Assembly: GCA_945861275.1 (NCBI GenBank)
Contig: CAMATZ010000002.1
Span: 10,300-74,299, forward strand
Length of the DNA: 64,000 bases
Source of the DNA: Bordetella parapertussis
GTDB lineage: Bacteria > Pseudomonadota > Gammaproteobacteria > Burkholderiales > SG8-41
Direction: 5' to 3'
Positions 39,241 through 62,546 of this stretch are shown here, in pieces. The notes beneath the pieces are model-generated. The model did not search any database and was not told the origin of the DNA. It worked only from the letters and a program-made list of their open reading frames with translations. Position 1 is the first letter of the stretch. Each line of letters starts with the position of its first letter. The position numbers and the translations under genes are program-made.

Positions 39241-39559
39241 GATGCCCCTACTCCCGCCAGGCATCGATATCTACACATCTCAAAGAGACCCCCTCGCCCC
39301 GGAAACGGGGAGAGGGTGGGGGTGAGGGGCGGCTATCTCATGCTGCGGTAGTGCCCCTCACCCTAGCCCTCTCCCCGTTTCCGGGGCGAGGGAACTGTGA
39401 AGTGGAGATGTGTAGATACCGATGCCCGCCGGGAGAAGGGCTGGGGATAGCGCAGCGAGGGGGCCGAACGCGGGAAGGGACGCCACGTTCATGGGCGCAA
39501 TTCGCGACGCACGCGCCGTGGCGTCACTCCCGCTCAATCGGGCGAGGGAGTTTCTTTGA
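39241..39559. repeat. composite GC-rich REP/MITE-like nested palindrome
   Basis: Two inverted copies of about 70-90 bp: 39241-39330 against 39353-39448. Each contains the hairpin core CCCTCGCCCCGGAAACGGGGAGAGGGTGGGGGTGAGGGGC (39291-39330, reverse copy 39353-39392). TCAAAGAGACCCCCTCGCCC at 39280-39299 and its inverted partner GGGCGAGGGAGTTTCTTTGA at 39540-39559 match the termini of the 47.7-kb copy. Lies between convergent genes. Confidence 0.85.
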
Positions 39560-40869: not shown

Positions 40870-41655
40870 TTATCTACCAATGAAGTTCGGCTTGCGTTTT
40901 TGCTGGTAAGCGGCGTAGCCCTCGCGAAAATCCGCGGTATCGAAATAGGCAAAACTGGCGTCGATTTCAGCTGCGGTCAGCGGCTGCGCACTTGGCGTAA
41001 GCCGACGCACAAATTGTTTATGCCAGCGCGCCACCAGCGGCGCGCCCGCCGCGATGCGCTCGACGGTTGCGCGCGTTTCTTCGGCGAGTTGTGCATCGGG
41101 TGTCACGCGCGTGAGCAAACCTTTGGCCAACGCTTCGTGCGCATCCCACACGCGGCCTTCGAGCAAAATTTCCAGCGCGGCGGCGCGCCCCACCACCGGC
41201 AGCACCGCTGCGAGTTCGTCGCAGGCTATTGAAAACCCCAGCCGGTTGATCGGCACGCCAAAGCGCCCGGATACACCGGCGAGCCGCAGGTCGCACTGGC
41301 ATGCAATTTCGAGCCCGCCGCCCACGCAGGGACCGTGAATCATCGCCACCACCGGATGCCGGCAGTCGGCCACCGCTTGCAGCGCGCCATACACGTGCTC
41401 GCGGTGATAGATAACGCCCTGCTCGCGCGTGTTGCGCACGGTTGCAAATTCGGCGATGTCGGCGCCGGCGGCAAACGCCTGGTCGCCCGCGCCACGCAGC
41501 ACCACACAGCGCACATCGTCAGCTGCCGACAACTCGCGCATCACGCGCGCGAGTTGCTGCCACATCGCAACCGTCAGCACGTTTAACTTGGCGGGGTTGT
41601 CGATGAAAACGGTTGCTACCGCGGCAGACCGCTCGACACTGATTTGGCCTGGCAT
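40870..41655 (-). CDS. enoyl-CoA hydratase/isomerase (crotonase) family protein
   Basis: 261 aa. RCVVLRGAGDQAFAAGADIAEF and GPCVGGGLEIACQCDLRL are the oxyanion-hole motifs. Confidence 0.85.
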   Translation of the reverse strand: MPGQISVERSAAVATVFIDNPAKLNVLTVAMWQQLARVMRELSAADDVRCVVLRGAGDQAFAAGADIAEFATVRNTREQGVIYHREHVYGALQAVADCRHPVVAMIHGPCVGGGLEIACQCDLRLAGVSGRFGVPINRLGFSIACDELAAVLPVVGRAAALEILLEGRVWDAHEALAKGLLTRVTPDAQLAEETRATVERIAAGAPLVARWHKQFVRRLTPSAQPLTAAEIDASFAYFDTADFREGYAAYQQKRKPNFIGR

Positions 41656-44839: not shown

Positions 44840-46882
44840 TCAAACCTCAACTTTAAGACAAGCCGCGAAATGCCCGGCGCGCACCTCGCGTAACGGCGGG
44901 CGTTCAGCCCTGCACGCTGCATCCGCGCGCGGGCAGCGTGTGTGAAACACGCAGCCCGATGGTGGTGTCAGCGGACTGGGCACTTCACCGCCCAGCACAC
45001 GATGCGCGCGCTGCGCTTCGATCAGCGGATCAGGCACCGGCACCGCTTCGAGCAACGCCTGCGTGTAGGGGTGCAGCGGCTCTGCATACAAGGTGTCGCG
45101 ATCGGCGATCTCCATCACCCGGCCGAGGTACATGACGATCACGCGATCCGATATGTGGCGCACCACCGCAAGATCGTGCGCGATGAACAGATAGGTGAGC
45201 CCCAGTTTTTTCTGCAGTTCTTCCAGCAGATTGATGATCTGCGCCTGTATCGACACATCGAGCGCCGACACCGGCTCGTCGCACACGATAAATTCCGGTT
45301 CCATCGCCAGCGCGCGCGCTATGCCCACGCGCTGGCGCTGGCCGCCCGACAACTCATGCGGGTAACGGCCTGCCATGTAGTCAAACAGGCCCACCTGCCG
45401 CAACAGCCCGCTGACTTTGGCGCGCGCCGCGGCCTTGTCCGGCTGCAATTTATATACCAGCAGCGGCTCGGCGATGCTGTCGCCGATAGTCATGCGTGGA
45501 TTGAGTGAACTGAACGGGTCCTGAAAAATTACCTGTATCTTGCGGCGATAGGTTTTTAGCGCGTCGCCGCGCGCATGTGTGACGTCGGCGTTGTCAAAAG
45601 AGATGCTTCCGGCGGTGGAATTCTCCAGCCGTAACAACGTGCGCCCGACAGTGGTTTTGCCGCAGCCGGATTCGCCCACCAGGCCGACGGTCTCGCCCTT
45701 GAATACATCGAATGACAGATCATCTACCGCGCGCACTTCAGCCTTGTTGGCGGCGAAAGTTTTTAACCCGGTGGAAACATCGAAGTAGGTTTTGAGCCCG
45801 CGCACACTGAGCAAAGGCCGCTCGCGATTTACCGGCTTCACCACCGCTGCGCTGTGCGCGGCGGCTTGTAACCCCAGCGCGGCCGGGCCTTTATGTTCCA
45901 TTTCCTGCGCGCGCAGGCACGCGCTGTAACGACCGGCAGTCACCTCAAGCATGGCAGGCAGGCTCAGCTCACACGCCGGCTGGCGCCCCGCACAGCGCGG
46001 CGCAAAGCGGCAACCCGGCGGCGGCGCGAGCAGATCGGGCGGCGCGCCATCGATGGTTTCGAGCCGCAGGCCGCGCGGCTGGTCGAGCCGCGGCACCGAG
46101 CGCAGCAGGCCAGCGGTATACGGGTGCAGCGGCTTGGCAAATACCGCTTCCGCCGCACCCTGCTCGGCCAGGCGCGCCGCGTACATTACATTCACGCGGT
46201 CGGCGTAGCGCGCGACGATGCCCAGGTTGTGCGTGATCACCACCAGCGCGATGTTGAGATCACGCGCGAGGTCCTGCATCAGCTTGAGTATCTGCGCCTG
46301 GATCGTGACATCGAGCGCGGTGGTCGGCTCGTCCGCAATAATGAGCTTGGGGTTGCAGGCCAGCGCGATGGCAATCACCACGCGCTGGCGCATGCCGCCG
46401 GAGAATTGGTGCGGATATTGATCGAGCCTGCGCTCGGCGTCGGGAATGCCCACCATTTCCAGCAGCTCCAGCGCCCGCGTGCGTGCCGCCTCCGGCGTCA
46501 TATGCAAATGCAGAAACAGCGGCTCCATGATCTGAAACCCGACGGTGAGCACCGGATTCAGCGAAGTCATCGGATCCTGAAAAATCATCGCGATGTCGCG
46601 TCCGCGGATCGCACGCATTGCGTCATCGGCCAGCGTGAGCAGATCGCGGCCTTCGAACAGTATATGTCCTTGCGTCACGCGCCCTGATTGCGCCAGCAGC
46701 CGCATGATCGCCAGCGACGACACCGACTTTCCGCAGCCGGATTCACCCACCAGCGCGACGATTTCACCCGCCTTGACCGTATAGGAAATGCCTTCCACCG
46801 CACGCACCACGCCGCGCGGGGTGTGAAATTGCACATGCAGGTTGTCGACTTCGAGCAGGCAGGGCTGCCCTTCAACTGTCAC
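44840..46882 (-). CDS. ABC transporter ATP-binding protein with duplicated ATPase domains (DppD/DppF-type fusion, GsiA/YejF-like)
   Basis: Two Walker A sites ([22 protein letters not shown]), two signatures ([16 protein letters not shown]), and two oligopeptide-type C-terminal tails (HPYTAGLL.., HPYTQALL..) with Cys clusters. Start set at GTG 46882, which overlaps the upstream TGA. Confidence 0.85.
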
Positions 46883-49800
46883 GCCAGCGCGTCCGCCAGC
46901 ACGCGTGCCACATGCACCGCCTCGCGTTGCGCGCCGTCGTGTATCTGGTGGCGGCAACTTGTGCCATCGGCGACGATCAAGGTATCTTTGCCGGCCTCGC
47001 GAACTTTCGGCAGCAATGCGGCTTCGGCCATTTGCATCGATACCTCGTAATGCTCAGCGTCGTAGCCGAAACTGCCGGCCATGCCGCAGCAACTGGATTC
47101 GATCAATTCGGTTTGCAGCTCGGGTATCAGATTCAGCACGCGCAGCACCGCGGGCATCGCGGCGAACGCTTTTTGATGGCAGTGGCCGTGCAGCAGCGCT
47201 TTTTTCTGCGGCAACGCTTTTAAATTCAGCTTGAAGCGCCCGGCGTCGAGCTCGCGCGCGATGAACTCCTCGAACAGGTAGGCGTTCAACGCCAGTTCCG
47301 CCGACTGGGGATTCGGCAGCATCGACAGGAATTCGTCACGCATGCCGAGCAAACACGAGGGTTCCAATCCGACGATGGCAATGCCGCGTTCGATGTAGGG
47401 CAGCAGCGCGGCTATGGTGCGCTCGGCTTCCGCGCGCGCTTTGTCAACCATGCCGGTGGCAAGGTACGTGCGGCCGCAGCACAGCGGGCGCGATTCGCCT
47501 GGTGCGCGCGGCAGGTGTACGGTGTAGCCGGCGGCTTGCAGCACTTTTAATGCTGCTTGCGCATTCTCGGGTTCGAAGTAGTTGTTGAAGGTATCGATGA
47601 AGAGGACGACTTCGCGCTTTACAGTACTTTCCCCAGTAGCATCGCTGGCGTTACCACTCAAAGAAACCCCCTCGCCCGCCTTGGGGCGGGACAAGGGAAC
47701 ACTTGAAGCGGAGCAGAGGGTGGGGGAGAGGGTAGGGGAAGCAAGCCCCTCACCCCCACCCTCTCCCCGCAAGCGGGGCGAGGGGGTTTCTTTGGATGCT
47801 GCCATAGAGGAGAGAACGCCAATTGCGTCACCTTTCCACTTCGGCAACGACCGCTGCGCGGCAAATCCCACAAAGCCCTTCGCCACCGCCTGCGCCATAT
47901 TCACCAGCGGCCCCAGTTTCGATAGCCACGGCGCGTAATGCGGCAGGCCGGCAATCAGCTTGTCCTTCAAGCTATATCCATGCCGCCGTTTGTAATGATA
48001 AAGAAATTCGATCTTCATCTTCGCCATGTCCACGCCGGTGGGACATTCGCGCTTGCAGCCTTTGCAGGACACGCACAGATCCATCGCCTTGTGCATTTCG
48101 TCCGAGGTAAACGCGTCGGGGCCTAACTGCCCGGACAGCGCCAGCCGCAGCGTGTTGGCGCGGCCGCGCGTGAGATGCTGTTCGTCGCGTGTGACGCGAA
48201 ACGACGGGCACATGGTGCCGGCGTCGAACTTGCGGCAGTGGCCGTTGTTGTTGCACATCTCGACGGCTTTATCCAGACCGCCCCACTCTTTCCAGTCGAG
48301 CGCGGTGCTGATCGGGATGGTCTTGTAACCGGGCTTGAAGCGGAACAGCGAGCGGTCGTCCTGCTTCGACGGGCGCACGATCTTGCCGGGATTGAGCAGA
48401 CCTTTGGGATCGAAAATATCCTTGATTTCGCCAAACGCCTGGGTGAGATTGGGCCCGAAGAAGGGTGCTATCCACTCGCTGCGCACCAGGCCGTCGCCGT
48501 GTTCGCCCGAGTACGAGCCTTTGTATTGCTTGACCATTTCCGCGGCTTCTTCGGCGATGGCGCGCATTTTTATTGCACCGTCTTCACGCATATTGAGTAT
48601 GGGACGCACATGCAGCGTGCCTACCGATGCATGCGCGTACCAGGTGCCGGTGGTGCCGTGTTTCTCGAATACGCGCGTCAAGCGCTCGGTATACTCGGCG
48701 AGATGTTCCAGCGGCACCGCGCAGTCTTCGATGAACGACACCGGTTTGCCGTCGCCCTTCATCGACATCATGATGTTCAGCCCCGCCTTGCGCACCTCCC
48801 ACACGTCGCGCTGCAGCGCGGCGTCGGTGATCTCGATCACGCCGCCGGGGAATCCCAGGTCGCCCATCAGTTCGACCAATTGTTTTAACTTGTGGTGTTG
48901 CTCGTCCTTGTCGTCACCCGCGAATTCCACCAGCAAAATCGCGTCCGGGTCGCCCTGAATAAATTTCTCGACGATGGGCCGGAACGTGGCATTCGCACGC
49001 GCCAGCCCGATCATGGTGCGATCCACCAGCTCGACTGCGGTGGGCTTGAGCTTGACGATATGCAACGGCGCTTGCATCGATTTAAAAAACGTCGGGAAGT
49101 GACACACGCCGAGTGTCTTGTGCTTGGGCAGCGTTGACAGGTTGAGATGTATGCGTTTCGAGTACGCCAGCGTGCCTTCCGAGCCCACCAGCAGATGCGC
49201 CATGTTAAATGCGTAGCCCGACACCATGTCAAGGTTGTAACCGCCGACGCGCCGCAGCAGCTTCGGATAGCGGTGCTCAATTTCCTCGGCGTTGACTACC
49301 GCAATATCGCGGATTTTCCTCACCAGATCGCGGTAGCCCTGTGGCCCATCGAGTTGCGACAGATCCGAAGGCACACCGCCGAAGTGATATTCATTGCCGT
49401 CGGCGAGTACCGCATCCACACCGCGCACGTTGTGCACCATGTTGCCGTAGAAAATCGAGCGCGAGCCGCAGGAGTTGTTGCCGGTCATGCCGCCGATGGT
49501 TGCCTGCGCGCTGGTCGATACGTCCACCGGATACCACAGGCCGTGCGGTTTCAAAAATGCGTTGAGTTGGTCGAGCACCACGCCCGGTTGCACCACGGCC
49601 GTGCGCGCCTCAGCATTGAAATCGACGACGTTGCGCAAATACTTGCTGACATCAATGATCAGCGCCGCGCCCACCGTCTGCCCGCACTGCGAAGTACCGC
49701 CGCCACGTGGCAATACCGCCACGCCGGCGTCGAGCGCGATCTGCATGGCGACAATGGCGTCTTCCTCGGTCTGCGGAATGACCACACCGACCGGTTCGAT

Positions 49801-49905
49801 CTGGTAGATCGAAGCATCGGTGGAATAGCGCCCGCGTGTTGCGGCGTCAAACAGCACGTCGCCGCGGATTTCTTGCTTGAGGCGGGTGGCGAGGGTCGAA
49901 GGCAT
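46879..49905 (-). CDS. FAD-binding and Fe-S/CCG-domain fusion oxidoreductase (YdiJ-like; GlcD-type plus GlcF-type modules)
   Basis: An N-terminal FAD-linked oxidase domain is followed by a 4Fe-4S dicluster region (CNNNGHCRKFDAGTMCP, CVSCKGCKRECP). Two CCG domains follow (VVLFIDTFNNYFEP, CCGMAGSFG). Start set at ATG 49905 (MPSTLATRLKQEIRG); the 20-codon extension to 49965 is encoded by repeat DNA. Confidence 0.85.
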   Translation of the reverse strand: MPSTLATRLKQEIRGDVLFDAATRGRYSTDASIYQIEPVGVVIPQTEEDAIVAMQIALDAGVAVLPRGGGTSQCGQTVGAALIIDVSKYLRNVVDFNAEARTAVVQPGVVLDQLNAFLKPHGLWYPVDVSTSAQATIGGMTGNNSCGSRSIFYGNMVHNVRGVDAVLADGNEYHFGGVPSDLSQLDGPQGYRDLVRKIRDIAVVNAEEIEHRYPKLLRRVGGYNLDMVSGYAFNMAHLLVGSEGTLAYSKRIHLNLSTLPKHKTLGVCHFPTFFKSMQAPLHIVKLKPTAVELVDRTMIGLARANATFRPIVEKFIQGDPDAILLVEFAGDDKDEQHHKLKQLVELMGDLGFPGGVIEITDAALQRDVWEVRKAGLNIMMSMKGDGKPVSFIEDCAVPLEHLAEYTERLTRVFEKHGTTGTWYAHASVGTLHVRPILNMREDGAIKMRAIAEEAAEMVKQYKGSYSGEHGDGLVRSEWIAPFFGPNLTQAFGEIKDIFDPKGLLNPGKIVRPSKQDDRSLFRFKPGYKTIPISTALDWKEWGGLDKAVEMCNNNGHCRKFDAGTMCPSFRVTRDEQHLTRGRANTLRLALSGQLGPDAFTSDEMHKAMDLCVSCKGCKRECPTGVDMAKMKIEFLYHYKRRHGYSLKDKLIAGLPHYAPWLSKLGPLVNMAQAVAKGFVGFAAQRSLPKWKGDAIGVLSSMAASKETPSPRLRGEGGGEGLASPTLSPTLCSASSVPLSRPKAGEGVSLSGNASDATGESTVKREVVLFIDTFNNYFEPENAQAALKVLQAAGYTVHLPRAPGESRPLCCGRTYLATGMVDKARAEAERTIAALLPYIERGIAIVGLEPSCLLGMRDEFLSMLPNPQSAELALNAYLFEEFIARELDAGRFKLNLKALPQKKALLHGHCHQKAFAAMPAVLRVLNLIPELQTELIESSCCGMAGSFGYDAEHYEVSMQMAEAALLPKVREAGKDTLIVADGTSCRHQIHDGAQREAVHVARVLADALA
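47658..47794. repeat. MITE/REP-like element inserted in-frame within the YdiJ-like CDS
   Basis: Terminal inverted repeats TCAAAGAAACCCCCTCGCCC (47658-47677) and GGGCGAGGGGGTTTCTTTG (47776-47794). The interior carries the same GGGTGGGGG / CCCTCTCCCCGCAAGCGGGGCGAGGG hairpin core as 39.3 kb and 63.8 kb. On the minus strand it translates as ..SPRLRGEGGGEGLASPTLSPT..PKAGEGVSL.. Confidence 0.85.
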
Positions 49906-49908
49906 AAA

Positions 49909-50004
49909 GGCGTGAACGAGTGAACGGGTTAACGAGTGAACGTGTGGGCGCCGTGGCAGGGGCACTTACTCGTTCACCCCTTCACCCGTTCACCCGTTCA
50001 CGCC
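49909..50004. repeat. imperfect 34-bp inverted repeat built from tandem GTGAACG(R) octamers, in a divergent promoter region
   Basis: Left arm 49909-49942 is GGCGTGAACGAGTGAACGGGTTAACGAGTGAACG. The right arm 49971-50004 is its reverse complement with 4 mismatches. The spacer is 28 bp. TATAAT at 50007-50012 follows immediately, 27 nt before ATG 50039. Confidence 0.8.
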
Positions 50005-50038
50005 CTTATAATACCGCACCATTTTCCGGAGCACCGCC

Positions 50039-51223
50039 ATGACTTACCAAGCCGGCCGCCATTTTCTGCAGATTCCCGGCCCCACCAATGTGCCCGACCG
50101 CGTGTTACGCGCCATAGACCGGCCGACTATCGACCATCGCGGGCCGGAGTTTCAGCAATTGGGTTACGACGTGCTGGCGGGCATGCAACGTATTTTAAAG
50201 ACCAAGGGCGCGGTGGTGATTTACCCGGCGTCTGGCACCGGCGCGTGGGAAGCGGCTTTGGTCAATACGCTGTCGCCCGGCGACAAAGTTTTAATGTACG
50301 AAACCGGCCAGTTCGCGTCGTTGTGGCAAAAGCTGGCGCTGCGCATGAACCTGGTTCCGGAATTTATCGCCGGCGACTGGCGTCACGGCGCGGATGCCAC
50401 AGCCATAGAAGCGCGGCTGATTGAGGACAAGTCGCACACCATCAAAGCGGTGTGCGTGGTGCATAACGAAACCTCGACCGCAGTCACCTCGCGCATCGCG
50501 GAAGTGCGCAAAGCCATCGACCGCGCGAAGCATCCTGCGTTGCTGATGGTGGATACCATTTCGGGCCTCGGTTCCATCGATTATCGTCACGATGAGTGGG
50601 ACGTGGATGTCACCGTCGCCGGTTCGCAGAAGGGGTTGATGCTGCCGCCGGGATTGTCGTTCAACGCGGTCAGCGAAAAGGCGCTCGCCGCTTCCAAGAC
50701 CGCGAAGCTGCCGCGATCCTACTGGTCGTGGGATGAAATGCTCGGTCCCAACAAAACCGGATTTTTCCCGTACACCCCCGCTACCAATCTGCTCTATGGG
50801 CTGCGCGAGGCGGTGGCGATGCTGGAGGAAGAGGGCCTCGACAATGTGTTCAAACGCCACGACCGCCACGCCGAAGCCACGCGCCGTGCGGTGCATACCT
50901 GGGGCCTCGAAATCCTGTGCAAAAACGAAACCGAATATTCCAGCGCGCTCACCGCGGTGCTGATGCCCACGGGTTACAGCGAGGTCGCGTTCCGCAAAGT
51001 GGTGCTCGATAACTTTAATATGTCGCTCGGCAGCGGACTGGGCAAGATCGCCGACAAGGTGTTTCGCATCGGACACCTCGGCGACTTCAACGATCTCACC
51101 TTGATGGGCACGCTGGCCGGTGTGGAAATGGGGCTGGCGCTGGCCAAGGTGCCGCATCAGCCGGGCGGGGTTGCGGCAGCGATGGAATGCCTGAAAGAAA
51201 GTTGTTTAAAAACAAATAGTTAA
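50039..51223 (+). CDS. class V aminotransferase (serine-glyoxylate / alanine-glyoxylate aminotransferase-like)
   Basis: 394 aa. HFLQIPGPTNVPDRVLRAIDRPTIDHRGPEF N-terminus and VAGSQKGLMLPPG (PLP-Lys region) are typical of SgaA/AGXT-type enzymes. Confidence 0.85.
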   Translation: MTYQAGRHFLQIPGPTNVPDRVLRAIDRPTIDHRGPEFQQLGYDVLAGMQRILKTKGAVVIYPASGTGAWEAALVNTLSPGDKVLMYETGQFASLWQKLALRMNLVPEFIAGDWRHGADATAIEARLIEDKSHTIKAVCVVHNETSTAVTSRIAEVRKAIDRAKHPALLMVDTISGLGSIDYRHDEWDVDVTVAGSQKGLMLPPGLSFNAVSEKALAASKTAKLPRSYWSWDEMLGPNKTGFFPYTPATNLLYGLREAVAMLEEEGLDNVFKRHDRHAEATRRAVHTWGLEILCKNETEYSSALTAVLMPTGYSEVAFRKVVLDNFNMSLGSGLGKIADKVFRIGHLGDFNDLTLMGTLAGVEMGLALAKVPHQPGGVAAAMECLKESCLKTNS

Positions 51224-51224
51224 C

Positions 51225-52196
51225 ATGAAAATTAAATGCACGCTGCTCGCACTGGCGCTACTCTGTTTCGGCGCAACCGGATGGGCGCAGGGCTGGACCC
51301 CGCAACGCAACGTGGAAATCGTCGTCGGCTTCGCGCCAGGCGGCGGTGTCGACCGCACGGCGCGTACGCTGGAACGGATCCTGACGACCAACAAGCTGGT
51401 GAGCACGAGCATTGCAGTGGTCAACAAGCCCGGCGGCAACACCAACATCGCCTACACCTATGTCAGCCAGCGCCCTGGAGATGCGCACACCCTGATGGTG
51501 TTCGGGCAGACCATCATGACCAATCACATCACCGGCGCCATTCCGCTCAACTACACTGATTTCACCCCTATCGCATCGCTTTTCAGCGAGTACCATGTCT
51601 ACGTGGTTAGCGCAAACACGCCGGTCAGAACCGGCAAGGACCTGGTGCAGCGCCTTAAAACCGATGTCAGGTCGGTGACTACCGGGGTCTCCGCGATCGG
51701 CAGCCCCGGCCACATCTCAGCCGGGCTGCTCAATAAAGCGATCGGCGGCAACGCGAAGGACCTCCGCATAATTGCCTTCAAGGGGTCGTCCGAAGCATTG
51801 ACCAACGTGCTCGGCGGACATGTCGAACTCACGCCCGCCCCAGCCAGCATTGCCGCCCCACATGTCACCTCCGCGCATATCCGCATGGTAGCCGTTGCGG
51901 CCCCCAAGCGGCTCGGCGGTGCATTTGCCGCGATTCCGACATGGAAGGAACAAGGTGTCGATCTCGTGTATGGCCCCTGGCGCGGGATCCTGGCGCCGAA
52001 GGGCTTGACCGCCGCTCAGATCGCCTACTGGGAAAACACGCTGCGCAGAGTCACCGAATCCGCGGAATGGAAAAGCGACCTCGAGAAAATTCACGGGGTC
52101 GACGACTTCCTGACCGGATTGCCGTTTCGCAAAGACCTCGAAAAGGATTACGCCGACACCAAAGCGGTGCTGGTTGATCTGGGCATGGCCAAGTAG
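51225..52196 (+). CDS. Bug family TTT substrate-binding protein (TctC-like)
   Basis: 323 aa. Signal peptide MKIKCTLLALALLCFGATGWAQ, then RNVEIVVGFAPGGGVD. Starts 1 nt after the aminotransferase stop. Confidence 0.82.
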   Translation: MKIKCTLLALALLCFGATGWAQGWTPQRNVEIVVGFAPGGGVDRTARTLERILTTNKLVSTSIAVVNKPGGNTNIAYTYVSQRPGDAHTLMVFGQTIMTNHITGAIPLNYTDFTPIASLFSEYHVYVVSANTPVRTGKDLVQRLKTDVRSVTTGVSAIGSPGHISAGLLNKAIGGNAKDLRIIAFKGSSEALTNVLGGHVELTPAPASIAAPHVTSAHIRMVAVAAPKRLGGAFAAIPTWKEQGVDLVYGPWRGILAPKGLTAAQIAYWENTLRRVTESAEWKSDLEKIHGVDDFLTGLPFRKDLEKDYADTKAVLVDLGMAK

Positions 52197-52202
52197 TGGC
52201 CG

Positions 52203-52640
52203 TCAGCGGATATTCGCCTGAGCCGTAGTCCCCAGCGGCACCGCATCGGGCACATGTTCCTTCTCAAAATTAAATTCGAGTTTGGTGCCGACCGGGTCGT
52301 ATAAAAACACCTGGTAGCCCGCGTCCTTGATGTTTTGCTCCTCGAACTCGATATCGAGCTTTTTCAAACGCTTGCGGAAATCCACCGCCCCGCTCGCCTT
52401 CCACGCGATGTGATCGAGGCTACCGGAGTGATAGTCCTTCACCTGCGCGCCCTTTTTGAAGCGCGCACCGACGTGCAGGATGGGATCGTCGCCGTTATAA
52501 AGCCAAACGCCGGGGGCATTGAAATTGGGACGCGGCCCGGCCTTGAGGTCCAGCACGTCGCCGTAGAATTTTTCGATGGCCGGAAGGTCGTCCTCCGAGC
52601 AGCGGATGTTGAAATGCAAAAAACCCTGGAAGAATTTCAT
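52203..52640 (-). CDS. VOC (glyoxalase/bleomycin-resistance/dioxygenase) family protein
   Basis: 145 aa. LHFNIRCS...FYGDVLDL...LDHIAW...FLYDPVGTKLEF is the VOC beta-alpha-beta-beta-beta pattern with metal-ligand His/Glu positions. Confidence 0.7.
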   Translation of the reverse strand: MKFFQGFLHFNIRCSEDDLPAIEKFYGDVLDLKAGPRPNFNAPGVWLYNGDDPILHVGARFKKGAQVKDYHSGSLDHIAWKASGAVDFRKRLKKLDIEFEEQNIKDAGYQVFLYDPVGTKLEFNFEKEHVPDAVPLGTTAQANIR

Positions 52641-52713
52641 GATGTCTCCTTGAATAGAATCGATGGCGATATCTTACCCGCCATCGTGAAAACGGTCTAA
52701 TGCCATTGCGTAG

Positions 52714-53679
52714 TCACTGCTGCGGCACACCCGCATCACGCGCGGCGGCAGCCCACGAAGCTAGCTGTTCTTTAATGAATGCAGGGAGTTCTTTGCGCGT
52801 AGGGCCTCCCGTTTCAAGGCCGATCTTTTGGAACTGCTCCTGGATCTCCGGGCGCTTTAGAACCACGTTGACCTCACGCTCAAGACGTTCAATTCTGGCC
52901 GCGGGCGTCTTTGCCGGCGCGAGCAGGGCGAACCATCCATAAATCGAGAAATTCGGAATGCCCGCCTCGACAATGGTCGGCACCTCGGGCGCCGGCCGCG
53001 TACGGGTGCGGGTAAGCGCGGCAAGTGCGCGCAATCTGCCGTCTTTTACATGCGGCAGCAGCAGGTTGGTGCCGCCGGTAAGGATATGCACACGCCCGGA
53101 CAGCAGGTCCGGCACCGCCGCTGCGTCACCCTTATACGGGACGTTCAGGAAGTCCACTTTCGCAGCCGCTTTTATTTGCGCCATAGTGAAAATCGTCGGT
53201 GGATTGGCGGCGGCGACGATAAGCTTGCCGGGATTCGCGCGCGCGTAAGTAATCAGTTCAGCCAGCGTTTTTGCCGGCACGCCGGGATGCACCACCAACA
53301 GCAAGCTGCTCCATCCGACAAACACCACCGGCACGAAATCAGCAATCGAATCATACGGCGGATTTTTGCGCATAGCCGGCACGCCGGCAATATTGGAGCC
53401 GCTGCCCATCAGCAGGGTATGGCCGTCAGGCGTGGCTTTCGCTACCAACTCCGCGCCAATCGCACCGTCCGCGCCGGGCCGGTTATCGATCAGCACGGTC
53501 TGACCCAGTGCCGGCGACAGCGCCTGCGCGATAATCCGGCCCGCGGCATCGGTGGGACCGCCGGCGGGAAATCCAAGGACGAAACGCACGGGCCGGGTCG
53601 GATACGGCTCCGCCGCTTGTGTAACTGCACCAAACGCAAGGATTGCTGTTGTCACAACGGCGCGAACGATGTTTGTCAT
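52714..53679 (-). CDS. Bug family TTT substrate-binding protein (TctC-like)
   Basis: From ATG 53679: signal peptide MTNIVRAVVTTAILAFGAVTQAA, then EPYPTRPVRFVLGFPAGGPTD. Confidence 0.85.
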   Translation of the reverse strand: MTNIVRAVVTTAILAFGAVTQAAEPYPTRPVRFVLGFPAGGPTDAAGRIIAQALSPALGQTVLIDNRPGADGAIGAELVAKATPDGHTLLMGSGSNIAGVPAMRKNPPYDSIADFVPVVFVGWSSLLLVVHPGVPAKTLAELITYARANPGKLIVAAANPPTIFTMAQIKAAAKVDFLNVPYKGDAAAVPDLLSGRVHILTGGTNLLLPHVKDGRLRALAALTRTRTRPAPEVPTIVEAGIPNFSIYGWFALLAPAKTPAARIERLEREVNVVLKRPEIQEQFQKIGLETGGPTRKELPAFIKEQLASWAAAARDAGVPQQ

Positions 53680-53825
53680 TTTTCGTCCCAAAATCCTTTA
53701 ATCTGATTTTTTGCGGAAATCCATTTAAGCATATTTTGTTCGTCAACGCAGTGCCACACCTGGGTTTGCCGCGGTACTTTGCGCTATTATCAGGCAATCC
53801 AAACGGCACTTACACAGGAGGAGAA

Positions 53826-54653
53826 ATGGGACTCAAGGATCGCATCGGCGTCGACATCAGCCGCCGCCTGAAACTGGAAACCGCCATCGACTGGGCGGCG
53901 AACAACGGCTTGAAACACATCGACATCCAGCTCGACACGGGGGATAACGCACTACCCAAGTTCGACACCAAGCGTTGTGCCGGCGTGCGCAAGTTACTGG
54001 ATAAACACAATCTTAAGCTCGGCCTGCACAGCAGTTCGGCGGTGAACGTCGCCGAGTATTCGCCACTGGTGTCCGATGCAGTGACCGAATACCTGAAACG
54101 CTACATCGATCTGGTGGTCAAGCTCGGCGCCAGCTGGACCGAGATGCACGCGGGTTATCACTTCACCAAGGACAAACAAATGCGCATGGCGGCGGGCAAA
54201 GAGCGCCTCCAGCGCATCGTCGCCTATGCCGAGAAGAAAAAGGCACTGGTGCTGCTGGAAAATCTCAACAAGGAGCCGGATGACGCGGAAGTGCATTACC
54301 TCGCGCACACCGTCGAAGAGTGGCAGTACTATTGGGACATCAAGTCGCCCAGCTTCAAGCTGAGCTTCACCGCCAACCACGCGCACCTGGTGCCCGACGG
54401 GATCGAGGGTTTCGTCAAAGCGCTGAATTTCAAGCGCGTGCACGAAGTGCGGCTCGCGGATTGCTTTCGTAACGGCTTTGAGGTGCATCTGCCGCCGGGC
54501 AAGGGCAATATCGATTTCGGACTCATGTTCAAGCTGATCGAGGGCGCGGGCTACAAGGGCGGCTACACCAACGCCTTCGGCACGCTGGATGACATGCTGG
54601 CGGCGCGCGACACCCTGGTGAATCACGCGCGGGCAGCCGGGGTGAAGGTGTAG
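53826..54653 (+). CDS. sugar phosphate isomerase/epimerase (xylose isomerase-like TIM barrel) family protein
   Basis: From ATG 53826 (RBS GGAGGAG upstream): about 275 aa with HID...LGLHSS...LLENLN...ANHAHL, a pattern of metal ligands typical of AP_endonuc_2/TIM-barrel proteins. Confidence 0.7.
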   Translation: MGLKDRIGVDISRRLKLETAIDWAANNGLKHIDIQLDTGDNALPKFDTKRCAGVRKLLDKHNLKLGLHSSSAVNVAEYSPLVSDAVTEYLKRYIDLVVKLGASWTEMHAGYHFTKDKQMRMAAGKERLQRIVAYAEKKKALVLLENLNKEPDDAEVHYLAHTVEEWQYYWDIKSPSFKLSFTANHAHLVPDGIEGFVKALNFKRVHEVRLADCFRNGFEVHLPPGKGNIDFGLMFKLIEGAGYKGGYTNAFGTLDDMLAARDTLVNHARAAGVKV

Positions 54654-54696
54654 TTACGAGAGCAACCCGTGGTTTATCAACCGCAATACAACGCCT

Positions 54697-54775
54697 GTCA
54701 TTCCCGCGAAGGCGGGAATCCATACGACGCGGCATATGGCACAGTGTTATAGATTCCCGCCTTCGCGGGAATGAC
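54697..54775. repeat. inverted pair of REP hairpins (GTCATTCCCGCGAAGGCGGGAATC)
   Basis: 54697-54720 GTCATTCCCGCGAAGGCGGGAATC and 54752-54775 GATTCCCGCCTTCGCGGGAATGAC are exact reverse complements. Each unit is itself a hairpin (TTCCCGC-GAA-GGCGGGAA). Confidence 0.9.
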
Positions 54776-54876
54776 ACGTGAAAAGGTAACCTGAGCTTAT
54801 CTGTGTCAGTCCCTGTTCATCCGTGGTTAAAAATATTTTTTCTCGCCGCCTGCGCGATGCAAACACACGAGCAGAA

Positions 54877-55908
54877 ATGAATAGAACGTTGACAGTATCG
54901 TTGCTCAGTCTGCTGCTGACAGCCACGAGCGCGCACGCGCAAACGAAATCACCGGTGGCAGCGGCCAAAGACAAGGGGGCGCCGCCGCCAACCGAAGCGC
55001 CCAAGCCCGGTGCTTATCCCAACAAACCTATCCGCTTCATGGTGCCGTTCGCGCCCGGCGGCACTACCGACCTGGTCGCACGCATGGCCGGTCAGAAGAT
55101 GTCGGAGTCGCTGGGCCAGCCGCTGGTGATTGACAATCGCGGCGGTGGCGGCGGCACCATCGCCACCGACATCGTAGCCAAGGCCGCGGGCGATGGCTAC
55201 ACGCTGATGATGAATCACCAGGGCATGACTTTTAACGCGACGCTCTATGCCAAACTGCCGTATGACACGCTCAATGATTTCGCCACCATCGCCATGGTCG
55301 GCGTCACCCCCAACGTGCTGGTAGTCAATCCGGGTGTCGCGGCGAAATCGGTGAAGGAGCTAGTGGCGCTGGCCAAGGCCAAATCCAATAGCATCAACTA
55401 TGGCTCCGGCGGCATGGGCAGTTCCGCGCATCTCGCCGTGGAATTGTTCGTGCGGCTTGCCGGCGTGCAACTGCAACATGTGCCTTACAAGGGCGCCGGT
55501 CCAGCACTCACGGATACTATCGGCGGACAGATTCAAATGATGATCGCTACCATGCCGGCGGCGGCGGGTCACATCCGCAGCAACCGGCTGCGCGCACTCG
55601 GTGTGTCGGGCGCAAAAAAATCGCCGGCATTTCCAGAACTGCCGACCATCGCCGAGGCCGGCGTACCGGGGTATGACTACACCACCTGGTACGGCATCCT
55701 CGGCCCAAAGGCGTTGCCGCAAAACATTGTGCAGTATCTGGCAGCGGTCGCCAATAAAACGCTGTCACAAAAAGATTTGCGCGACAAACTTTCACAGCAG
55801 GGCATGGAAGTGGAATTGATGACGCCGGAGAAATTCGCTGAAGTGCTCAAAAGTGATGTCGCGCGCTGGGGTAAGATCATTCGTGATGCCGGCATCAAGG
55901 CGGAGTAG
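54877..55908 (+). CDS. Bug family TTT substrate-binding protein (TctC-like) with Pro/Ala/Lys-rich N-terminal linker
   Basis: From ATG 54877: signal peptide MNRTLTVSLLSLLLTATSAHA, then linker KSPVAAAKDKGAPPPTEAPKPG, then YPNKPIRFMVPFAPGGTTD. Confidence 0.85.
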   Translation: MNRTLTVSLLSLLLTATSAHAQTKSPVAAAKDKGAPPPTEAPKPGAYPNKPIRFMVPFAPGGTTDLVARMAGQKMSESLGQPLVIDNRGGGGGTIATDIVAKAAGDGYTLMMNHQGMTFNATLYAKLPYDTLNDFATIAMVGVTPNVLVVNPGVAAKSVKELVALAKAKSNSINYGSGGMGSSAHLAVELFVRLAGVQLQHVPYKGAGPALTDTIGGQIQMMIATMPAAAGHIRSNRLRALGVSGAKKSPAFPELPTIAEAGVPGYDYTTWYGILGPKALPQNIVQYLAAVANKTLSQKDLRDKLSQQGMEVELMTPEKFAEVLKSDVARWGKIIRDAGIKAE

Positions 55909-55909: not shown

Positions 55910-56692
55910 TTGAAGTCCGAACCCATACTCGTCACCCGCGACGGCAGCATTGCCACCGTCGCGCTGAATAATCCCGACCGCCTTAACGCGCTGAACAAGC
56001 CGATGTGGGAACGCCTCGGTGCGGCGATGCGCGAATTGTCGGCCGACGACACGCTGCGCTGCGTGGTACTGCGCGGCGCAGGTGAAAAGGCCTTCGCCGC
56101 AGGCGCCGACATTTCTGAATTCGCGTCTGAGCGCGCGAATTCAACGCAGGCCAAAATCTACGGTGATCTGGTACACCACACCATGCAGGCCGTGGGCATG
56201 TGCAAGCATCCGACGGTGGCGATGATCAAAGGCGCGTGTGTCGGCGGCGGCCTCGAAATCGCCGCCATGTGCGATATGCGCATTTGCGGCGTATCGAGCC
56301 GCTTCGGCGTGCCGATCAACAAGCTGGGCCTGACCATGGGTTACGGCGAACTCGCCGGTCTGCTGGCGCTGGCAGGGCGCGCTGTGGCACTGGAAATTTT
56401 GCTCGAAGGCCGCGTATTTGATGCGAACGAGGCACTGCAAAAGCGTCTCGTCAATCGTGTGGTGGCCGACGATCAAGTGGAAGTCGAGGCCTACGCCACC
56501 GCGGCACGCATTGCCGCCGGCGCGCCGCTGGTTGCGCGCTGGCACAAGCAATTCATCGAGCGCCTGACGGTGCAGGCCAGTATTGCGCCGGAGGTGTGGG
56601 ACGAGGGGTTTGCGTGCTTTGACACCGAGGATTACCGCTTGGGTATCGCGGCATTTTTGGCCAAAAAACCACCGCAGTTCAAGGCAAGATGA
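55910..56692 (+). CDS. enoyl-CoA hydratase/isomerase family protein (paralogue of 40870..41655)
   Basis: RCVVLRGAGEKAFAAGADISEF, GACVGGGLEIAAMCDMRI and the C-terminal AAGAPLVARWHKQFIERL are near-identical blocks to the other ECH. Start is uncertain: TTG 55910 gives a length matching the paralogue; ATG 55886 is the alternative. Confidence 0.8.
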   Translation: MKSEPILVTRDGSIATVALNNPDRLNALNKPMWERLGAAMRELSADDTLRCVVLRGAGEKAFAAGADISEFASERANSTQAKIYGDLVHHTMQAVGMCKHPTVAMIKGACVGGGLEIAAMCDMRICGVSSRFGVPINKLGLTMGYGELAGLLALAGRAVALEILLEGRVFDANEALQKRLVNRVVADDQVEVEAYATAARIAAGAPLVARWHKQFIERLTVQASIAPEVWDEGFACFDTEDYRLGIAAFLAKKPPQFKAR

Positions 56693-59399: not shown

Positions 59400-62300
59400 T
59401 TGGCAGACGCACAGCAACGCCAGGGCGACGAATTATTCATCGTCGATAACAGCGATTCCGACTGGAAAGTAAGGGACTATCTTCGCGAATGGTCGGGGAT
59501 ATCCCGTGCTTTCGATATCGCTACCGGGTACTTTGAAATTGGCGCATTGCTGGCCTTGGACGGGCAGTGGCAGCAATTGGAAAAGCTTCGAATCCTCATG
59601 GGTGACGAGGTATCGAAGCGTACTAAAAAGGCGCTGCTGGCGGGCATCCAAAACGTCAATCAAATTCTCGACGCGAGTCTTGAGAAGGAGAAAGAAAAAA
59701 ACGACTTCCTCACCGGTGTGCCTGCAATCGTTGAAGCGATTCGGGATCGCAAGATCGAATGCCGGGTTTACACGAAGGAAAAGTTTCACGCCAAGGCTTA
59801 CATTACCCACTCCAAACTAGCGGTCGTCGGCTCCGCAGCACTGGTTGGCTCCAGCAATCTTACCTATCCGGGACTCACCCAAAACGTCGAACTTAATGTT
59901 CAATTGCGCCGTGAAGTGCCGGTATTGCAGGAATGGTTCGAGCGACACTGGAATGAGGCGGAAGACGTTTCCGACGAGATCCTCAAAGTGATCGAGCGGC
60001 ACACACGGGATTACCTTCCGTTCGAGATTTACGCCAAGGCACTTCAAGAGTACTTCCGCAACCACGAAATCACTGTGGGCGAGTGGGAGTTACTTCATTC
60101 GAAAATGTTTTCTGTGCTCGACCAGTACCAAAAAGAGGGCTATCAGGCGCTAATCAAGATCGCCAACACTTATCACGGTGCATTCTTGTGCGATGGCGTC
60201 GGCCTTGGCAAAACGTTTGTCGGCATGATGGTGATCGAGCGTCTCATCATGCACGACCGCAAGCGCGTCATGCTGCTGGTGCCCAAAGCCGCACGCAAAC
60301 CTGTATGGGAAGCGGCTCTCAAGCGGTATCTGCCGCATCTCGCGGGCGACTTCAGCAACCTCGTTATTTTTAATCATACCGATCTTCAGCGTGAGGGCGA
60401 ATACCCTGAACGATTCGAGCGAATGAGAGAAATGGCGGACGTGATTCTGGTCGATGAGGCGCATCATTTCCGCAACCCCGGTATCAAGGGCATAACGGGC
60501 AAGGCCCCGTCCCGATATCGGAAATTCTTCGAATTGGCACAGGGCAAGCAGTTGTTTCTGCTCACCGCTACGCCGATCAACAACAAGCTCATCGATCTTC
60601 AACACCTGATCGAACTCTTTTCACAGCGCCAGGCGGACTATTTCAAATCGGCGCCGCTCGGTATTCATTCCTTGCCCGGCCACTTCCGCCGGATGGAAAA
60701 GGAGTTGGATCGGTTGGTTTCCGGCGCCGCCCCGGGCGCACAACAACAACTGGAAATTAGCGAAATCGAGGCCGAGCGAGTACTAACACAGGACGCTTTA
60801 TTCCAGGCGCTGGTTGTTCAGCGGAGTCGTGCCTACGTTACTGCGAGCCAGAAGCAGCACGGGGGAAGCGAAGCGCTCTTTCCGCAGCGGGAGGATCCTC
60901 GCGTCGCGGCCTACTCAATCAAAAAAACCTATGGGCGCTTACTGACCATGATGGAGGAGGCATTCTCAAAGAGTAAGCCGTTGTTCTCGCTACCGATGTA
61001 CTACCCTTTGGCTTACTTCAAGGGTGACGATAAGAATGTGGATCCGCTAATCGAAAATCGCCAGAAGCAAGTCGTGGGCTTGATTCGCATTCTGTTTCTG
61101 AAGCGTTTCGAGAGCTCCGCCAAAGCATTTGAAACGTCATGCGAGATGCTATTGCTCAAGCTGCTGACCTTCATGACGAAGAATTCCAAATCGGCTTCGG
61201 AACTTCGTGTACTGGAACGCTGGAAGCTGCAGCACGCAGATTTGATCGGTTATGTACAAAAGCACCAGCTCGAGTTGTTCGGCGAGGAGGACGAAGAGGC
61301 CGACGAGGACATCATCACCGAAGAAATGCTGGACGAAGTGGAGGAGCTTTCCCGTGAACAATACAGGGTTGAAGAGATATTGCAGGAAACGGTGCTCGAC
61401 CTCGATCAGGTCGCGCAGTTTCTGGAAGAGTTGCGCAAATTCAAGCCCTCGCATGACGACAAGCTGCGCGCATTGATTTCGTTATTGAAAAACGACCCTG
61501 TGCTCAAAAAGCACAAAGTTTTGATATTCTCAGAATTCATGTCCACCGCCCGCTATTTGCGGCATCAGTTGAGCGACGCGGGGATAGGTGGCATTGACCA
61601 GATAGACAGTGCTACCAAGCGCGACCGCGGCGAAGTGATCAAGCAGTTCGCGCCTTACTATAACGATTCGTCGAGCGCGCAACTGGCTGCTGCAGGGCTA
61701 ACCGAAACAACGGTGTTGATATCGACGGATGTGCTGTCAGAAGGCCTTAACCTGCAAGATGCGACCCGCCTCATCAATTACGATCTGCATTGGAACCCGG
61801 TCAGGCTGATGCAACGCATCGGTCGCGTCGACCGGCGCATGAACCCGGAGATCGAGGCCAGGTTGATTGCGGATCACCCTGACGAGAAGAAACTTCGCGG
61901 CAAAGTCGTGTATTGGAACTTCCTGCCCCCTGAGGAACTGGATAATCTGCTCGCGCTTTACGGCAAGGTATCGCATAAAACGTTGCGCATCTCGAAAACG
62001 TTTGGCATAGAAGGTAAAAAGCTCCTCAAGCCGGATGATGATTACGAAGCCATGAAGGACTTTAATCATTCCTATGAGGGCGCCACAACGGCCGATGAGG
62101 CCATGCACCTCGAATACCAGCGCTTGCTCCAGGAGCACCCTGACCTTAAGGCACGGCTCGACGTACTGCCGGGCCGGGTTTTTTCCGGCAAGGCGCATCC
62201 TGAAAAAGGCAAGCGGGCAGTATTTTTCTGTTATGCCTTGCCCGCGCAGGATCAAAGCATAGCCGACGAGGCTGCACTGGACGCTGGCCGTTGGACTATC

Positions 62301-62546
62301 GATTCGGGATACACGCGGTGGGTCTTATATGACTTTGAAACGAAGAAACTGATTGAGGACGCAACCCAGATTATCGAGTTTATCCGCAGCGGTCCGAATA
62401 CCCCGCGTGTGGTGGCGATTCCGCAACTGACGCTGGGCGAAATTCGAGGCGAGGTGGAGAAGCACTTAAGAAACACCTATCTCAGGCAAGTGCAGGCGCC
62501 GGTCGGCGTCAAACCTGTGTTGCGAGCGTGGATGGAATTGAACTGA
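59400..62546 (+). CDS. PLD/HKD-nuclease-domain plus SNF2-family helicase fusion protein (defence-associated helicase-related protein)
   Basis: 1048 aa. TTG start preceded by AAGGAAGAG. The N-terminus has an HKD-type motif, KFHAKAYITHSKLAVVGSAALVGSSNLT (aa about 128-155). It is followed by helicase motifs DGVGLGKTFVG (I), VDEAHHFRN (II), LLTATPINN (III) and HWNPVRLMQRIGRVDR (VI). Confidence 0.85.
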   Translation: MADAQQRQGDELFIVDNSDSDWKVRDYLREWSGISRAFDIATGYFEIGALLALDGQWQQLEKLRILMGDEVSKRTKKALLAGIQNVNQILDASLEKEKEKNDFLTGVPAIVEAIRDRKIECRVYTKEKFHAKAYITHSKLAVVGSAALVGSSNLTYPGLTQNVELNVQLRREVPVLQEWFERHWNEAEDVSDEILKVIERHTRDYLPFEIYAKALQEYFRNHEITVGEWELLHSKMFSVLDQYQKEGYQALIKIANTYHGAFLCDGVGLGKTFVGMMVIERLIMHDRKRVMLLVPKAARKPVWEAALKRYLPHLAGDFSNLVIFNHTDLQREGEYPERFERMREMADVILVDEAHHFRNPGIKGITGKAPSRYRKFFELAQGKQLFLLTATPINNKLIDLQHLIELFSQRQADYFKSAPLGIHSLPGHFRRMEKELDRLVSGAAPGAQQQLEISEIEAERVLTQDALFQALVVQRSRAYVTASQKQHGGSEALFPQREDPRVAAYSIKKTYGRLLTMMEEAFSKSKPLFSLPMYYPLAYFKGDDKNVDPLIENRQKQVVGLIRILFLKRFESSAKAFETSCEMLLLKLLTFMTKNSKSASELRVLERWKLQHADLIGYVQKHQLELFGEEDEEADEDIITEEMLDEVEELSREQYRVEEILQETVLDLDQVAQFLEELRKFKPSHDDKLRALISLLKNDPVLKKHKVLIFSEFMSTARYLRHQLSDAGIGGIDQIDSATKRDRGEVIKQFAPYYNDSSSAQLAAAGLTETTVLISTDVLSEGLNLQDATRLINYDLHWNPVRLMQRIGRVDRRMNPEIEARLIADHPDEKKLRGKVVYWNFLPPEELDNLLALYGKVSHKTLRISKTFGIEGKKLLKPDDDYEAMKDFNHSYEGATTADEAMHLEYQRLLQEHPDLKARLDVLPGRVFSGKAHPEKGKRAVFFCYALPAQDQSIADEAALDAGRWTIDSGYTRWVLYDFETKKLIEDATQIIEFIRSGPNTPRVVAIPQLTLGEIRGEVEKHLRNTYLRQVQAPVGVKPVLRAWMELN

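Follow-up and report, generated by a model that had tools for sequence, protein, structure and literature searches.

How can a long palindromic repeat lie inside a protein-coding gene without breaking its reading frame, and does the encoded enzyme still work? This question was raised by a 64,000-nt stretch of contig CAMATZ010000002.1 (GenBank assembly GCA_945861275.1, positions 10,300 to 74,299), referred to here as the window. In it, a palindromic element at 47.7 kb sits within a minus-strand gene (46879-49905) encoding an oxidoreductase of 1008 aa. Our results suggest that this element is a non-autonomous, dispersed palindromic repeat, comparable to the REPINs (doublets of repetitive extragenic palindromes, REPs) and to the MITEs (transposable elements of miniature size that carry inverted repeats), that it inserted in a permissive linker of the protein, and that it is translated as part of an enzyme that is still functional. 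We assign this explanation a probability of about 0.8.

The palindromic element and its host protein

Inverted-repeat searches and folds placed the inner nested palindrome of the element, which we call the doublet, at 47659-47794 (136 nt). It consists of two inverted, G/C-rich hairpin units with the ends CAAAGAAACCCCCTCGCCC and GGGCGAGGGGGTTTCTTTG, and is bounded by CAAAGAAAC...GTTTCTTTG. The outer arms (47659-47691 and 47762-47794) are 33 nt long and 85% complementary, and their outermost 19 nt (CAAAGAAACCCCCTCGCCC) pair perfectly, forming a left terminal inverted repeat (TIR) at 47659-47677 (the End B side, read on the plus strand) and a right one at 47776-47794 (the End A side). The inner arms (47715-47732 and 47747-47764) pair over 18 nt with 94% complementarity, and each arm holds an imperfect palindrome of its own (CCCTCGCCCCGCTTGCGGGGAGAGGG). 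The first-pass annotation of this DNA had described an element of about 137 bp with TIRs of 19-20 nt; the repeats are there, as 19 perfect nt, and the length has to be corrected to 136 nt. Counted from AAAG to CTTT the palindrome measures 134 nt, and in L002, one of the loci fetched for comparison (labelled L), it measures 113 nt. All these lengths are 3n+1 or 3n+2.

As single-stranded DNA, the element folds with -53 kcal/mol (z-score -9.3). The mRNA fold, with 20-nt flanks, is one long hairpin of -104.7 kcal/mol (z -7.9), with a stem of about 60 bp, an apex loop of 14 nt, and the sequence TTTCTTT (UUUCUUU in RNA) after the stem on both strands. We rejected the idea that this is an intrinsic terminator: a dedicated scan called neither this copy nor the related copy at 39.3 kb described below, and the long stem and 14-nt loop differ from the short stem and 3-8-nt loop expected of such signals. 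An Rfam scan over the whole window matched no family. Note that one arm carries an extra module of 24-26 nt (CAAGGGAACACTTGAAGCGGAGCA, at 47692-47715), which is absent from L002 and occurs at the same position in L025, an intergenic copy from another metagenome-assembled genome (MAG). The asymmetry of the arms is accordingly a marker of a subfamily rather than the product of a local secondary event.

The host protein contains the Pfam domains FAD_binding_4, FAD-oxidase_C, 4Fe-4S dicluster and CCG, and its C-terminal 400 residues align in NCBIfam to GlpC in one stretch that runs across the insert. The name YdiJ-like, given to it previously, suits the domain architecture and not the equivalog status: the score against the YdiJ equivalog (D-2-hydroxyglutarate dehydrogenase, NCBIfam NF049975) was 556.5 bits, with a cut-off of 1350. 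Judged from these profile matches, the gene has a YdiJ/GlcD-GlpC architecture without being a YdiJ equivalog. The palindrome corresponds to residues K705-L749 and is read in frame as ...SKETPSPRLRGEGGGEGLASPTLSPTLCSASSVPLSRPKAGEGVSLSGN..., the full translated stretch being KETPSPRLRGEGGGEGLASPTLSPTLCSASSVPLSRPKAGEGVSL. It lies between the Fer4_8/Fe-S module and the GlpC-like CCG part, and the open reading frame (ORF) of 1008 aa is intact. Both the domain positions and the unbroken frame agree with the earlier description of a low-complexity peptide between the Fe-S dicluster and CCG domains. We also considered whether the linker could be the fossil intergenic spacer of a gene fusion, and discarded this because the GlpC-like homology spans the linker as a single stretch.

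The exact 1008-aa protein is recorded on two contigs, and a second assembly (L001, an ENA contig) is identical to the window over 46304-52905 (6.6 kb). The in-gene element is therefore no one-off assembly artefact. A search of the PDB found no solved homologue for the Fe-S/CCG half of the protein. In an AlphaFold2 model built on 72 orthologues (mean predicted local distance difference test score, pLDDT, of 67), residues 704-761 are coil and have the lowest confidence of the chain (block means of 23-29), flanked by a helix (694-705) and a strand (765-769). In this model the insert would be a disordered surface loop.

The linker has gained a member of a dispersed repeat family

To define the borders of the segment we compared the protein with its 120 best orthologues (P0001-P0120; 72-92% identity, 936-1050 aa), which with the window protein makes n=121. 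Behind the invariant Trp-690, linker length across the 121 sequences ranges between 14 and 87 aa, and the window has 73 aa. Bare orthologues have linkers of only 14-20 aa, with the sequence KW-RGDAISNLIIADAVGK-REVVLF. In the DNA, the bare orthologue L006 has 96 nt between RSLPKW and VVLFIDTF and L003 has 99 nt, compared with 267 nt for the window; over L006, the net gain is 171 nt, or 57 codons. When the window was compared with its nearest relatives, L003 and L004 (synonymous divergence, dS, of about 0.3), 100 nt on each side were near-identical and the linker block between them could not be aligned. The 47.7-kb segment is a true insertion. This is what the first-pass annotation had proposed, naming as contrary evidence a linker of equivalent length in repeat-free orthologues; none has one.

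The hypervariable block, from the Trp-690 codon to the REVVLF strand (47617-47835, minus strand), contains the element and about 37 nt of extra flank, which either arrived with the element or arose later. Since the length of the palindrome is 3n+1 or 3n+2, the palindrome is not the whole inserted unit. The proposal to check whether the element is a multiple of three in length has accordingly two answers: the palindrome, at 136 or 134 nt, is not, and the net gain of 171 nt is. No target-site duplication could be recognised at 47.7 kb, in L002 or in L018, and no unambiguous ends were found at 47.7 kb. A mini-hairpin in L003 (CCCCTCGCC..GGCGAGGGG) was examined as a possible excision footprint and rejected, because linkers of the "LAPR..." kind are common in bare orthologues and point mutation could suffice to produce it.

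Where does the inserted sequence come from? The window contains a second copy of the family, in its full form, at 39246-39440. This copy is intergenic, between the 3' ends of the convergent Amidohydro_2 and CoA_transf_3 genes, and has outer TIRs of 36 nt (39246-39281 and 39405-39440; 89%) around an inner palindrome at 39281-39392. Its single-stranded DNA fold reaches -83.6 kcal/mol (z -13.9). The End A side repeat of the in-gene element is 90% complementary to 39281-39330 over 50 nt, and there are three sites of the terminal 20-mer in the window, with 0.01 expected by chance, the third being at 39283. One terminus had been reported as 19/20 identical to the 39.3-kb copy; the 20-mer is 18/20 identical, and the match itself stands, one whole arm agreeing at 90% along 50 nt. 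The Amidohydro_2 and CoA-transferase genes on either side of the 39.3-kb repeat are separated, in the syntenic relative L003, by HicB-like and ParE-like toxin-antitoxin genes.

A scan of a genome collection with the terminal 18-mer gave 55 hits, about 35 of them chance 18-mers, and the true copies were found only in uncultured Burkholderiales/Betaproteobacteria MAGs, one of which, a fragmented one, had at least 10 hits, many at contig ends. L018 and L044, both intergenic, and the copy within the L002 gene are 94-96% identical to the in-gene copy of the window. All copies outside this linker are intergenic, for instance immediately upstream of TctC genes; long spans without a stop over such copies were considered as further in-frame cases and proved to be 5' untranslated positions or wrong-frame GC artefacts. 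The 47.7-kb element belongs to a dispersed family, and the earlier wording "mobile repeat" is borne out by the intergenic dispersal of the same sequence at 39.3 kb and in other MAGs.

Full copies are built in layers: an outer TIR (GGCATSGGTATCTACACATCTC), then AAAGAAAC, one or two G/C-rich hairpin units, and the inverted TIR. The outer TIR layer (GGCATGGGTATCTACACATCTC) was defined from five full copies and is only vestigial at 47.7 kb, where a possible remnant at 47639-47658 (GCATCGCTGGCGTTACCACTC, compared with GCATCGATATCTACACATCTC at 39.3 kb) is 14/21 identical, which is weak evidence; neither the second flank of the in-gene copy nor L002 gave a convincing outer-TIR match. Minimal full copies have 79-81 nt between their outer-TIR matches, and in all fetched loci the outer-TIR motif occurs only in pairs less than 200 nt apart. 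Among these loci there was no insertion sequence (IS) with matching TIRs, a dedicated collection-wide search not having been made. In L039, L048, L049 and the 39.3-kb copy, a further small hairpin has its two halves on either side of the full repeat, for instance CCTTCCTC...GAGGAAGG or, at 39.3 kb, CCCTACTCCC...GGGAGAAGGG. A possible 5-bp duplication (TTCCG) was seen at L048, the other full copies being ambiguous. The nesting hints at insertion into hairpin loops.

A metagenome scan with AAAGARACCCCCTCGCCC-N9-11-GGAGAGGG gave three hits, all of them single-hairpin relatives and none the doublet. Unannotated multi-copy repeats in the intergenic DNA of Sinorhizobium/Rhizobium megaplasmids also contain the innermost G/C-rich module. 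From these matches, the core module would belong to a very widespread class, with AAAGAAAC and the TIR layers specific to the lineage.

The host gene is under purifying selection

The first-pass annotation had left open whether the insertion is tolerated or may have inactivated the enzyme. No position that is invariant in the alignment of 72 sequences has changed in the window protein; the Fe-S and CCG cysteines are among these positions. Pairwise ratios of nonsynonymous to synonymous substitution (dN/dS) outside the linker are 0.05-0.08, and are equally low on the N- and C-terminal sides of the insert. On the window branch, 72 of the private changes are synonymous and 5 are nonsynonymous, the same pattern as in sisters that are free of an insert or differently occupied. 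In L002, which has the same element, the gene is intact and its gene-wide dN/dS is 0.067. The host gene is under purifying selection, with its ORF and conserved residues intact, and from this pattern we infer that the protein is active. Together with the disordered loop of the AlphaFold2 model, these results favour the tolerated insertion; the intact ORF, the 72:5 ratio and the equal constraint on L002 argue against inactivation.

Note that three of the six frames of the element are free of stops, and that either orientation encodes KETPSP...GEGVSL. Given a net length that is a multiple of three, an in-frame survivor is thus not improbable.

Different palindromes occupy the same linker

The linker was long in many of the orthologues: 48 of the 121 have linkers of at least 40 aa, and 37 carry the Pro-x-Pro and Gly-Glu/Arg-Gly signatures of translated G/C palindromes. 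This one region holds 214 of the 311 majority-gap columns of the alignment. The inserts are of several unrelated sequence types and are spread over many clades. In the DNA, the long linkers of the window, L002, L007, L067, L068 and L069 are strongly structured palindromes that differ in sequence (z -6.0 to -8.6); the folds of L004 (z -2.7) and L003 (z -2.4) are intermediate, and the bare linker of L006 is unstructured (z -0.9). Sister pairs show stepwise growth of the linker, from P0018 to P0033 and from P0002 to P0001, as well as decay of a hairpin peptide to ordinary sequence, from P0018/P0034 to P0025. The background density is low: a simple motif screen found three loci of this repeat class in the window and, outside the linker, about two loci in a total of 144 kb; in eight other fetched orthologue loci the same screen found no repeat-class locus outside the linker. 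The linker is recurrently occupied by different palindromic repeats. This enrichment is real; its size is not well estimated, several of the fetched loci having been chosen for their long linkers and the orthologues having a common ancestry.

Two protein searches were made for further cases. A profile of the element peptide scored nothing in a set of 5.8 billion proteins and missed even P0006, the query being short and of low complexity. With the 121-aa linker and flanks as query, none of 30 candidates scored, and no further orthologues with the same insert were obtained.

Two additional features of the linker were observed. A short module (GFPTHTDGIWNDGLDNP / FSTATDGTWNDGSDVL) occurs at different linker positions in L007 (P0033) and in P0001, which are separate lineages, and looks like another small mobile element landing in the linker. 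In addition, the first ~10 residues after Trp-690 fall into three classes, G-D/N-A-I/L-x-x-L, G-x-F-V-R-x-x-K and G-S-A-L-x-x-L-A-P-R, which are patchy on the tree of the remaining protein (P0001-P0120). This suggests either recombination of cassettes through the conserved flanks or an ancient polymorphism.

How did the same element come to be in the window and in L002? The two palindromes share 95% identity, have one orientation and frame and lie at nearly the same position; their host genes are at a dS of 0.87, and divergence is seen in their linker flanks. The lineages with which the window groups on the tree carry other elements. We lean towards independent insertions at a preferred site. 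The two alternatives are one old insertion whose palindrome has been kept uniform by a family-wide constraint or by gene conversion, and a linker cassette that was transferred by recombination in its conserved flanks.

A more speculative extension, which we would put forward tentatively and consider rather doubtful, is that the linker is an actively targeted landing pad, in which repeats prefer the loops of existing hairpins and a founding insertion has made a self-reinforcing nest. The hints come from the full copies found inside CCCTYCYCC...GGRGRAGGG hairpins and from the growth of P0018 to P0033 and of P0002 to P0001. If this were true, elements would be added, replaced, homogenised and decayed in one place, a route to disordered linkers in free-living, GC-rich bacteria resembling that of the Rickettsia palindromic elements (RPEs).

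A probably tolerated insertion and its alternatives

The explanation that we favour can be put as a series of steps. A copy of the repeat would have entered the only indel-tolerant loop of an FAD/Fe-S/CCG oxidoreductase. Because the frame used has no stop and the net gain is divisible by three, the insert would simply be translated, as a Pro/Ser/Gly/Glu-rich stretch of about 45-57 aa forming a disordered surface loop between the Fe-S and CCG modules, and the enzyme would work on. The element would be selfish DNA, kept through a permissive landing place, with no benefit needed. Its mobilisation would depend on an enzyme supplied in trans, possibly one that targets hairpins. Different palindromes have colonised it repeatedly in related lineages, so that the linker acts as a nest or hot spot of long standing.

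Several points weigh against this explanation. The insertion is undatable, so the purifying selection seen on the window branch could largely predate it. The 47.7-kb copy lacks a target-site duplication and unambiguous ends, and a palindrome of 3n+1 or 3n+2 nt leaves part of the 171 nt as unexplained flank. No transposase or REP-associated tyrosine transposase (RAYT) was identified in the 64 kb of the source genome covered, no systematic scan for transposases having been made. The structural model is only moderate as a whole (mean pLDDT 67), and further segments of it are of low confidence. The 95% identity of the window and L002 palindromes despite a dS of 0.87 is unexplained by simple vertical inheritance of a neutral insert. 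Finally, the hot-spot figures are inflated by shared ancestry, and the loci for the DNA checks were chosen for their long linkers.

Among the other explanations, the insert could have been co-opted, which we think improbable. The hairpin and the UUUCUUU behind it would then act as an intragenic attenuator, pause or processing site, tuning expression of the CCG half and of the ABC-ATPase gene that lies downstream and is translationally coupled; in another version, the longer, flexible linker would have been selected for electron transfer between the modules or for partner binding. An effect of the RNA hairpin on translation or mRNA stability, raised already by the first-pass annotation, is plausible from the fold but conjectural. 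A hairpin of such stability with a U-rich tract directly after its stem on both strands would suit this role, as would the occupation of the linker by palindromes in many lineages. However, the inserts of different lineages are unrelated in sequence and length (14-87 aa) and many orthologues have none, which speaks against a required function; in addition, the terminator scan does not call the site, and some inserts are decaying to ordinary linker, for instance SPPSQPSPLKGEGASS to SPAPQPAALKAAGATS. The inner palindrome is 94-96% conserved across lineages with near-saturated silent sites, which might be taken as a sign of function in the gene, but the intergenic copies are equally conserved, so that this conservation is a property of the family and not of the gene.

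That the insertion is recent and disruptive, leaving a young pseudogene or a crippled enzyme in which stops have not yet accumulated, is in our view very unlikely. The retention of the family-invariant residues in an intact ORF, the 72:5 ratio and the retention of the element in the independent lineage L002 at a dN/dS of 0.067 speak for a working gene, and the loop accepts up to 87 aa in other intact orthologues, even if 57 residues have been added within the GlpC-like module, a long hairpin could impede transcription or translation, and the event cannot be dated. We give least credence of all to explanations without mobile DNA, in which a native low-complexity linker was expanded by slippage or duplication, or the assembly is at fault. 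It is true that the linker is hypervariable in general, and that this is a metagenome assembly of a kind in which repeats often break or mis-join contigs, with many copies of the family at contig ends. Against this, intergenic copies of the same sequence (110-136 nt, 94-96% identity) exist at 39.3 kb and in other MAGs, its 24-nt module recurs in L025, and there is no tandem structure. Moreover, both flanks form one collinear gene with the frame kept, 6.6 kb of the second assembly are identical to the window, and the element recurs at this position in an unrelated JGI assembly. The insertion of a mobile palindrome that is translated and tolerated is the explanation that we retain.

Other repeats and genes in the window

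A second in-frame palindrome was found in the 64 kb. A type IIG restriction/methyltransferase-like gene contains, at 63805-63860, a small G/C-rich hairpin (GGATTCCCTCCCCCGCTTGCGGGGGAGGGCAAGGGTGGGGGTATCCGAATCC), where the window has TWGEM-ALGFPPPLAGEGKGGGI-RIPDG, about 10 aa more than the TWGEM-VKRNPEL-KIPDG of homologues. This gene (62559-64000, plus strand) is split by a stop codon at 63090-63092; the ORF 62559-63092 and the frame from 63093 are in the same frame, and the two jointly align to single proteins of ~1100-1170 aa, residue 1 of the fragment corresponding to their residue ~175. Motif I reads DIATGTGTF, compared with the conserved DPATGTGTF. The gene may be decaying, in a phase-off state or the victim of an assembly error. 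It forms, with a preceding gene for a 1048-aa PLD(HKD)+SNF2 helicase, a defence-island-like pair at 59400-64000. The best PADLOC match of the helicase is "HKD+Snf2", with weaker DrmD/BrxH/DpdE-like matches.

An unrelated, near-perfect inverted repeat lies at 54696-54776, between the ORFs 53643-54653 and 54823-55908. Its 29-nt arms are 97% complementary, are separated by a 23-nt spacer and are each a hairpin (ATTCCCGCGAAGGCGGGAAT); it probably represents a different REP-like family. Other matches within the window are a 370-nt inverted one between 41012-41381 and 56184-56553 (71% identity) and a three-copy direct set at 37.0-37.6, 55.0-55.6 and 58.4-58.9 kb (60-80% identity). Both are probably paralogous genes rather than mobile repeats; the direct set resembles TctC/Bug-family binding proteins, of which the window and its relatives have many. 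Finally, at window positions 46015-46303 the last ~290 nt of the ENA contig L001 diverge, with 137 mismatches. This divergence falls inside the ABC-ATPase gene (45306-46417), which has two homologous halves 1053 nt apart, and is probably an assembly break at that internal duplication.

Significance of the linker series

Rickettsia supplies the best-known in-frame selfish palindromes, together with a scatter of REP and MITE cases, and the present clear example comes from an uncultured, soil/water-type lineage of the Burkholderiales. About 120 orthologues provide a comparative series of one linker in its bare, singly occupied, multiply nested and decaying states. The series shows how disordered interdomain linkers can originate and lengthen through mobile hairpins instead of slippage, and the linker lends itself, as a natural system, to the question of whether such repeats target hairpins that already exist. 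The case also carries a warning for annotation: Pro/Ser/Gly/Glu-rich stretches of low complexity in GC-rich proteomes can be translated repeats.

Comparison with known systems

RPEs (Ogata et al. 2000) are described, in later accounts (PMC10969869, PMC3733652), as in-frame palindromic repeats inside functional Rickettsia genes. Like them, the 47.7-kb element is a dispersed palindrome of ~100-150 bp, in frame in an intact gene, translated, and thought to be tolerated in a permissive, surface-exposed place. Unlike them, it is hosted by an uncultured betaproteobacterium of the free-living type with 58% GC, whereas the hosts of RPEs are AT-rich, obligate intracellular alphaproteobacteria. Where RPEs affect dozens of genes, a single gene is affected in these 64 kb, besides a second and possibly decaying one that has a small hairpin, and the distinctive feature is that one linker has been colonised repeatedly across orthologues. 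From host and base composition, membership of the RPEs is very unlikely; the likeness would be one of function only.

REPINs are REP doublets that form hairpins (Bertels & Rainey 2011, PMC3116915); REP dimers of the GTAG/CGTC kind that lie within genes and encode 20-30 aa have been documented (Di Nocera et al. 2013, PMC3733652). As occurs in REPINs, our element has two inverted, G/C-rich, self-palindromic units with a short spacer that form one long hairpin, and its copies are mostly extragenic, for example between convergent genes. It differs from them in an apparently low copy number (two copies in 64 kb; at least 10 hits in one fragmented MAG) and in the extra TIR layer of the full copies, which is rather MITE-like. 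We rejected membership of the GTAG/CGTC REPs, as the tags are missing: the termini are CAAAGAAAC and CCCCTCGCCC, there is no GTAG or CGTC beside the stem at AAAGAAAC, and GTAG occurs only in the outer-TIR layer of the full copies (GTGTAGATACC).

In-frame intragenic copies are known for several families of bacterial MITEs, among them ERIC, BOX and others (PMC10969869). The present family shares with MITEs its small size, its non-coding and dispersed nature, its TIRs (19 nt perfect and 33 nt imperfect, with the 36-nt outer ones at 39.3 kb) and its long stem-loop. It departs from them in a nested, modular architecture instead of a simple TIR-spacer-TIR, and in that no parent IS was found in the fetched loci.

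The Sinorhizobium/Rhizobium palindromes contain an almost exact version of the core, GCCCCTCACCC(T/C)A(G/A)CCCTCTCCCCG-loop-CGGGGAGAGGG, in inverted pairs and in intergenic positions. They share only ~40% of the element, lack the AAAGAAAC termini and the outer TIR, and reside in Alphaproteobacteria. The shared core may reflect common descent or convergence. We take these repeats to be linked to the rhizobial "RIME/Sm-repeat" class.

The kind of event, an in-frame palindrome, is thus already known from RPEs, intragenic REPs and MITEs; what is added here is the outer-TIR architecture and the recurrent colonisation of one linker. The repeat family and the linker hot spot appear to be undescribed so far. 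By analogy with these systems, the 47.7-kb element resembles an RPE or an intragenic REP dimer in function, and a REPIN with a MITE-like TIR layer in structure.

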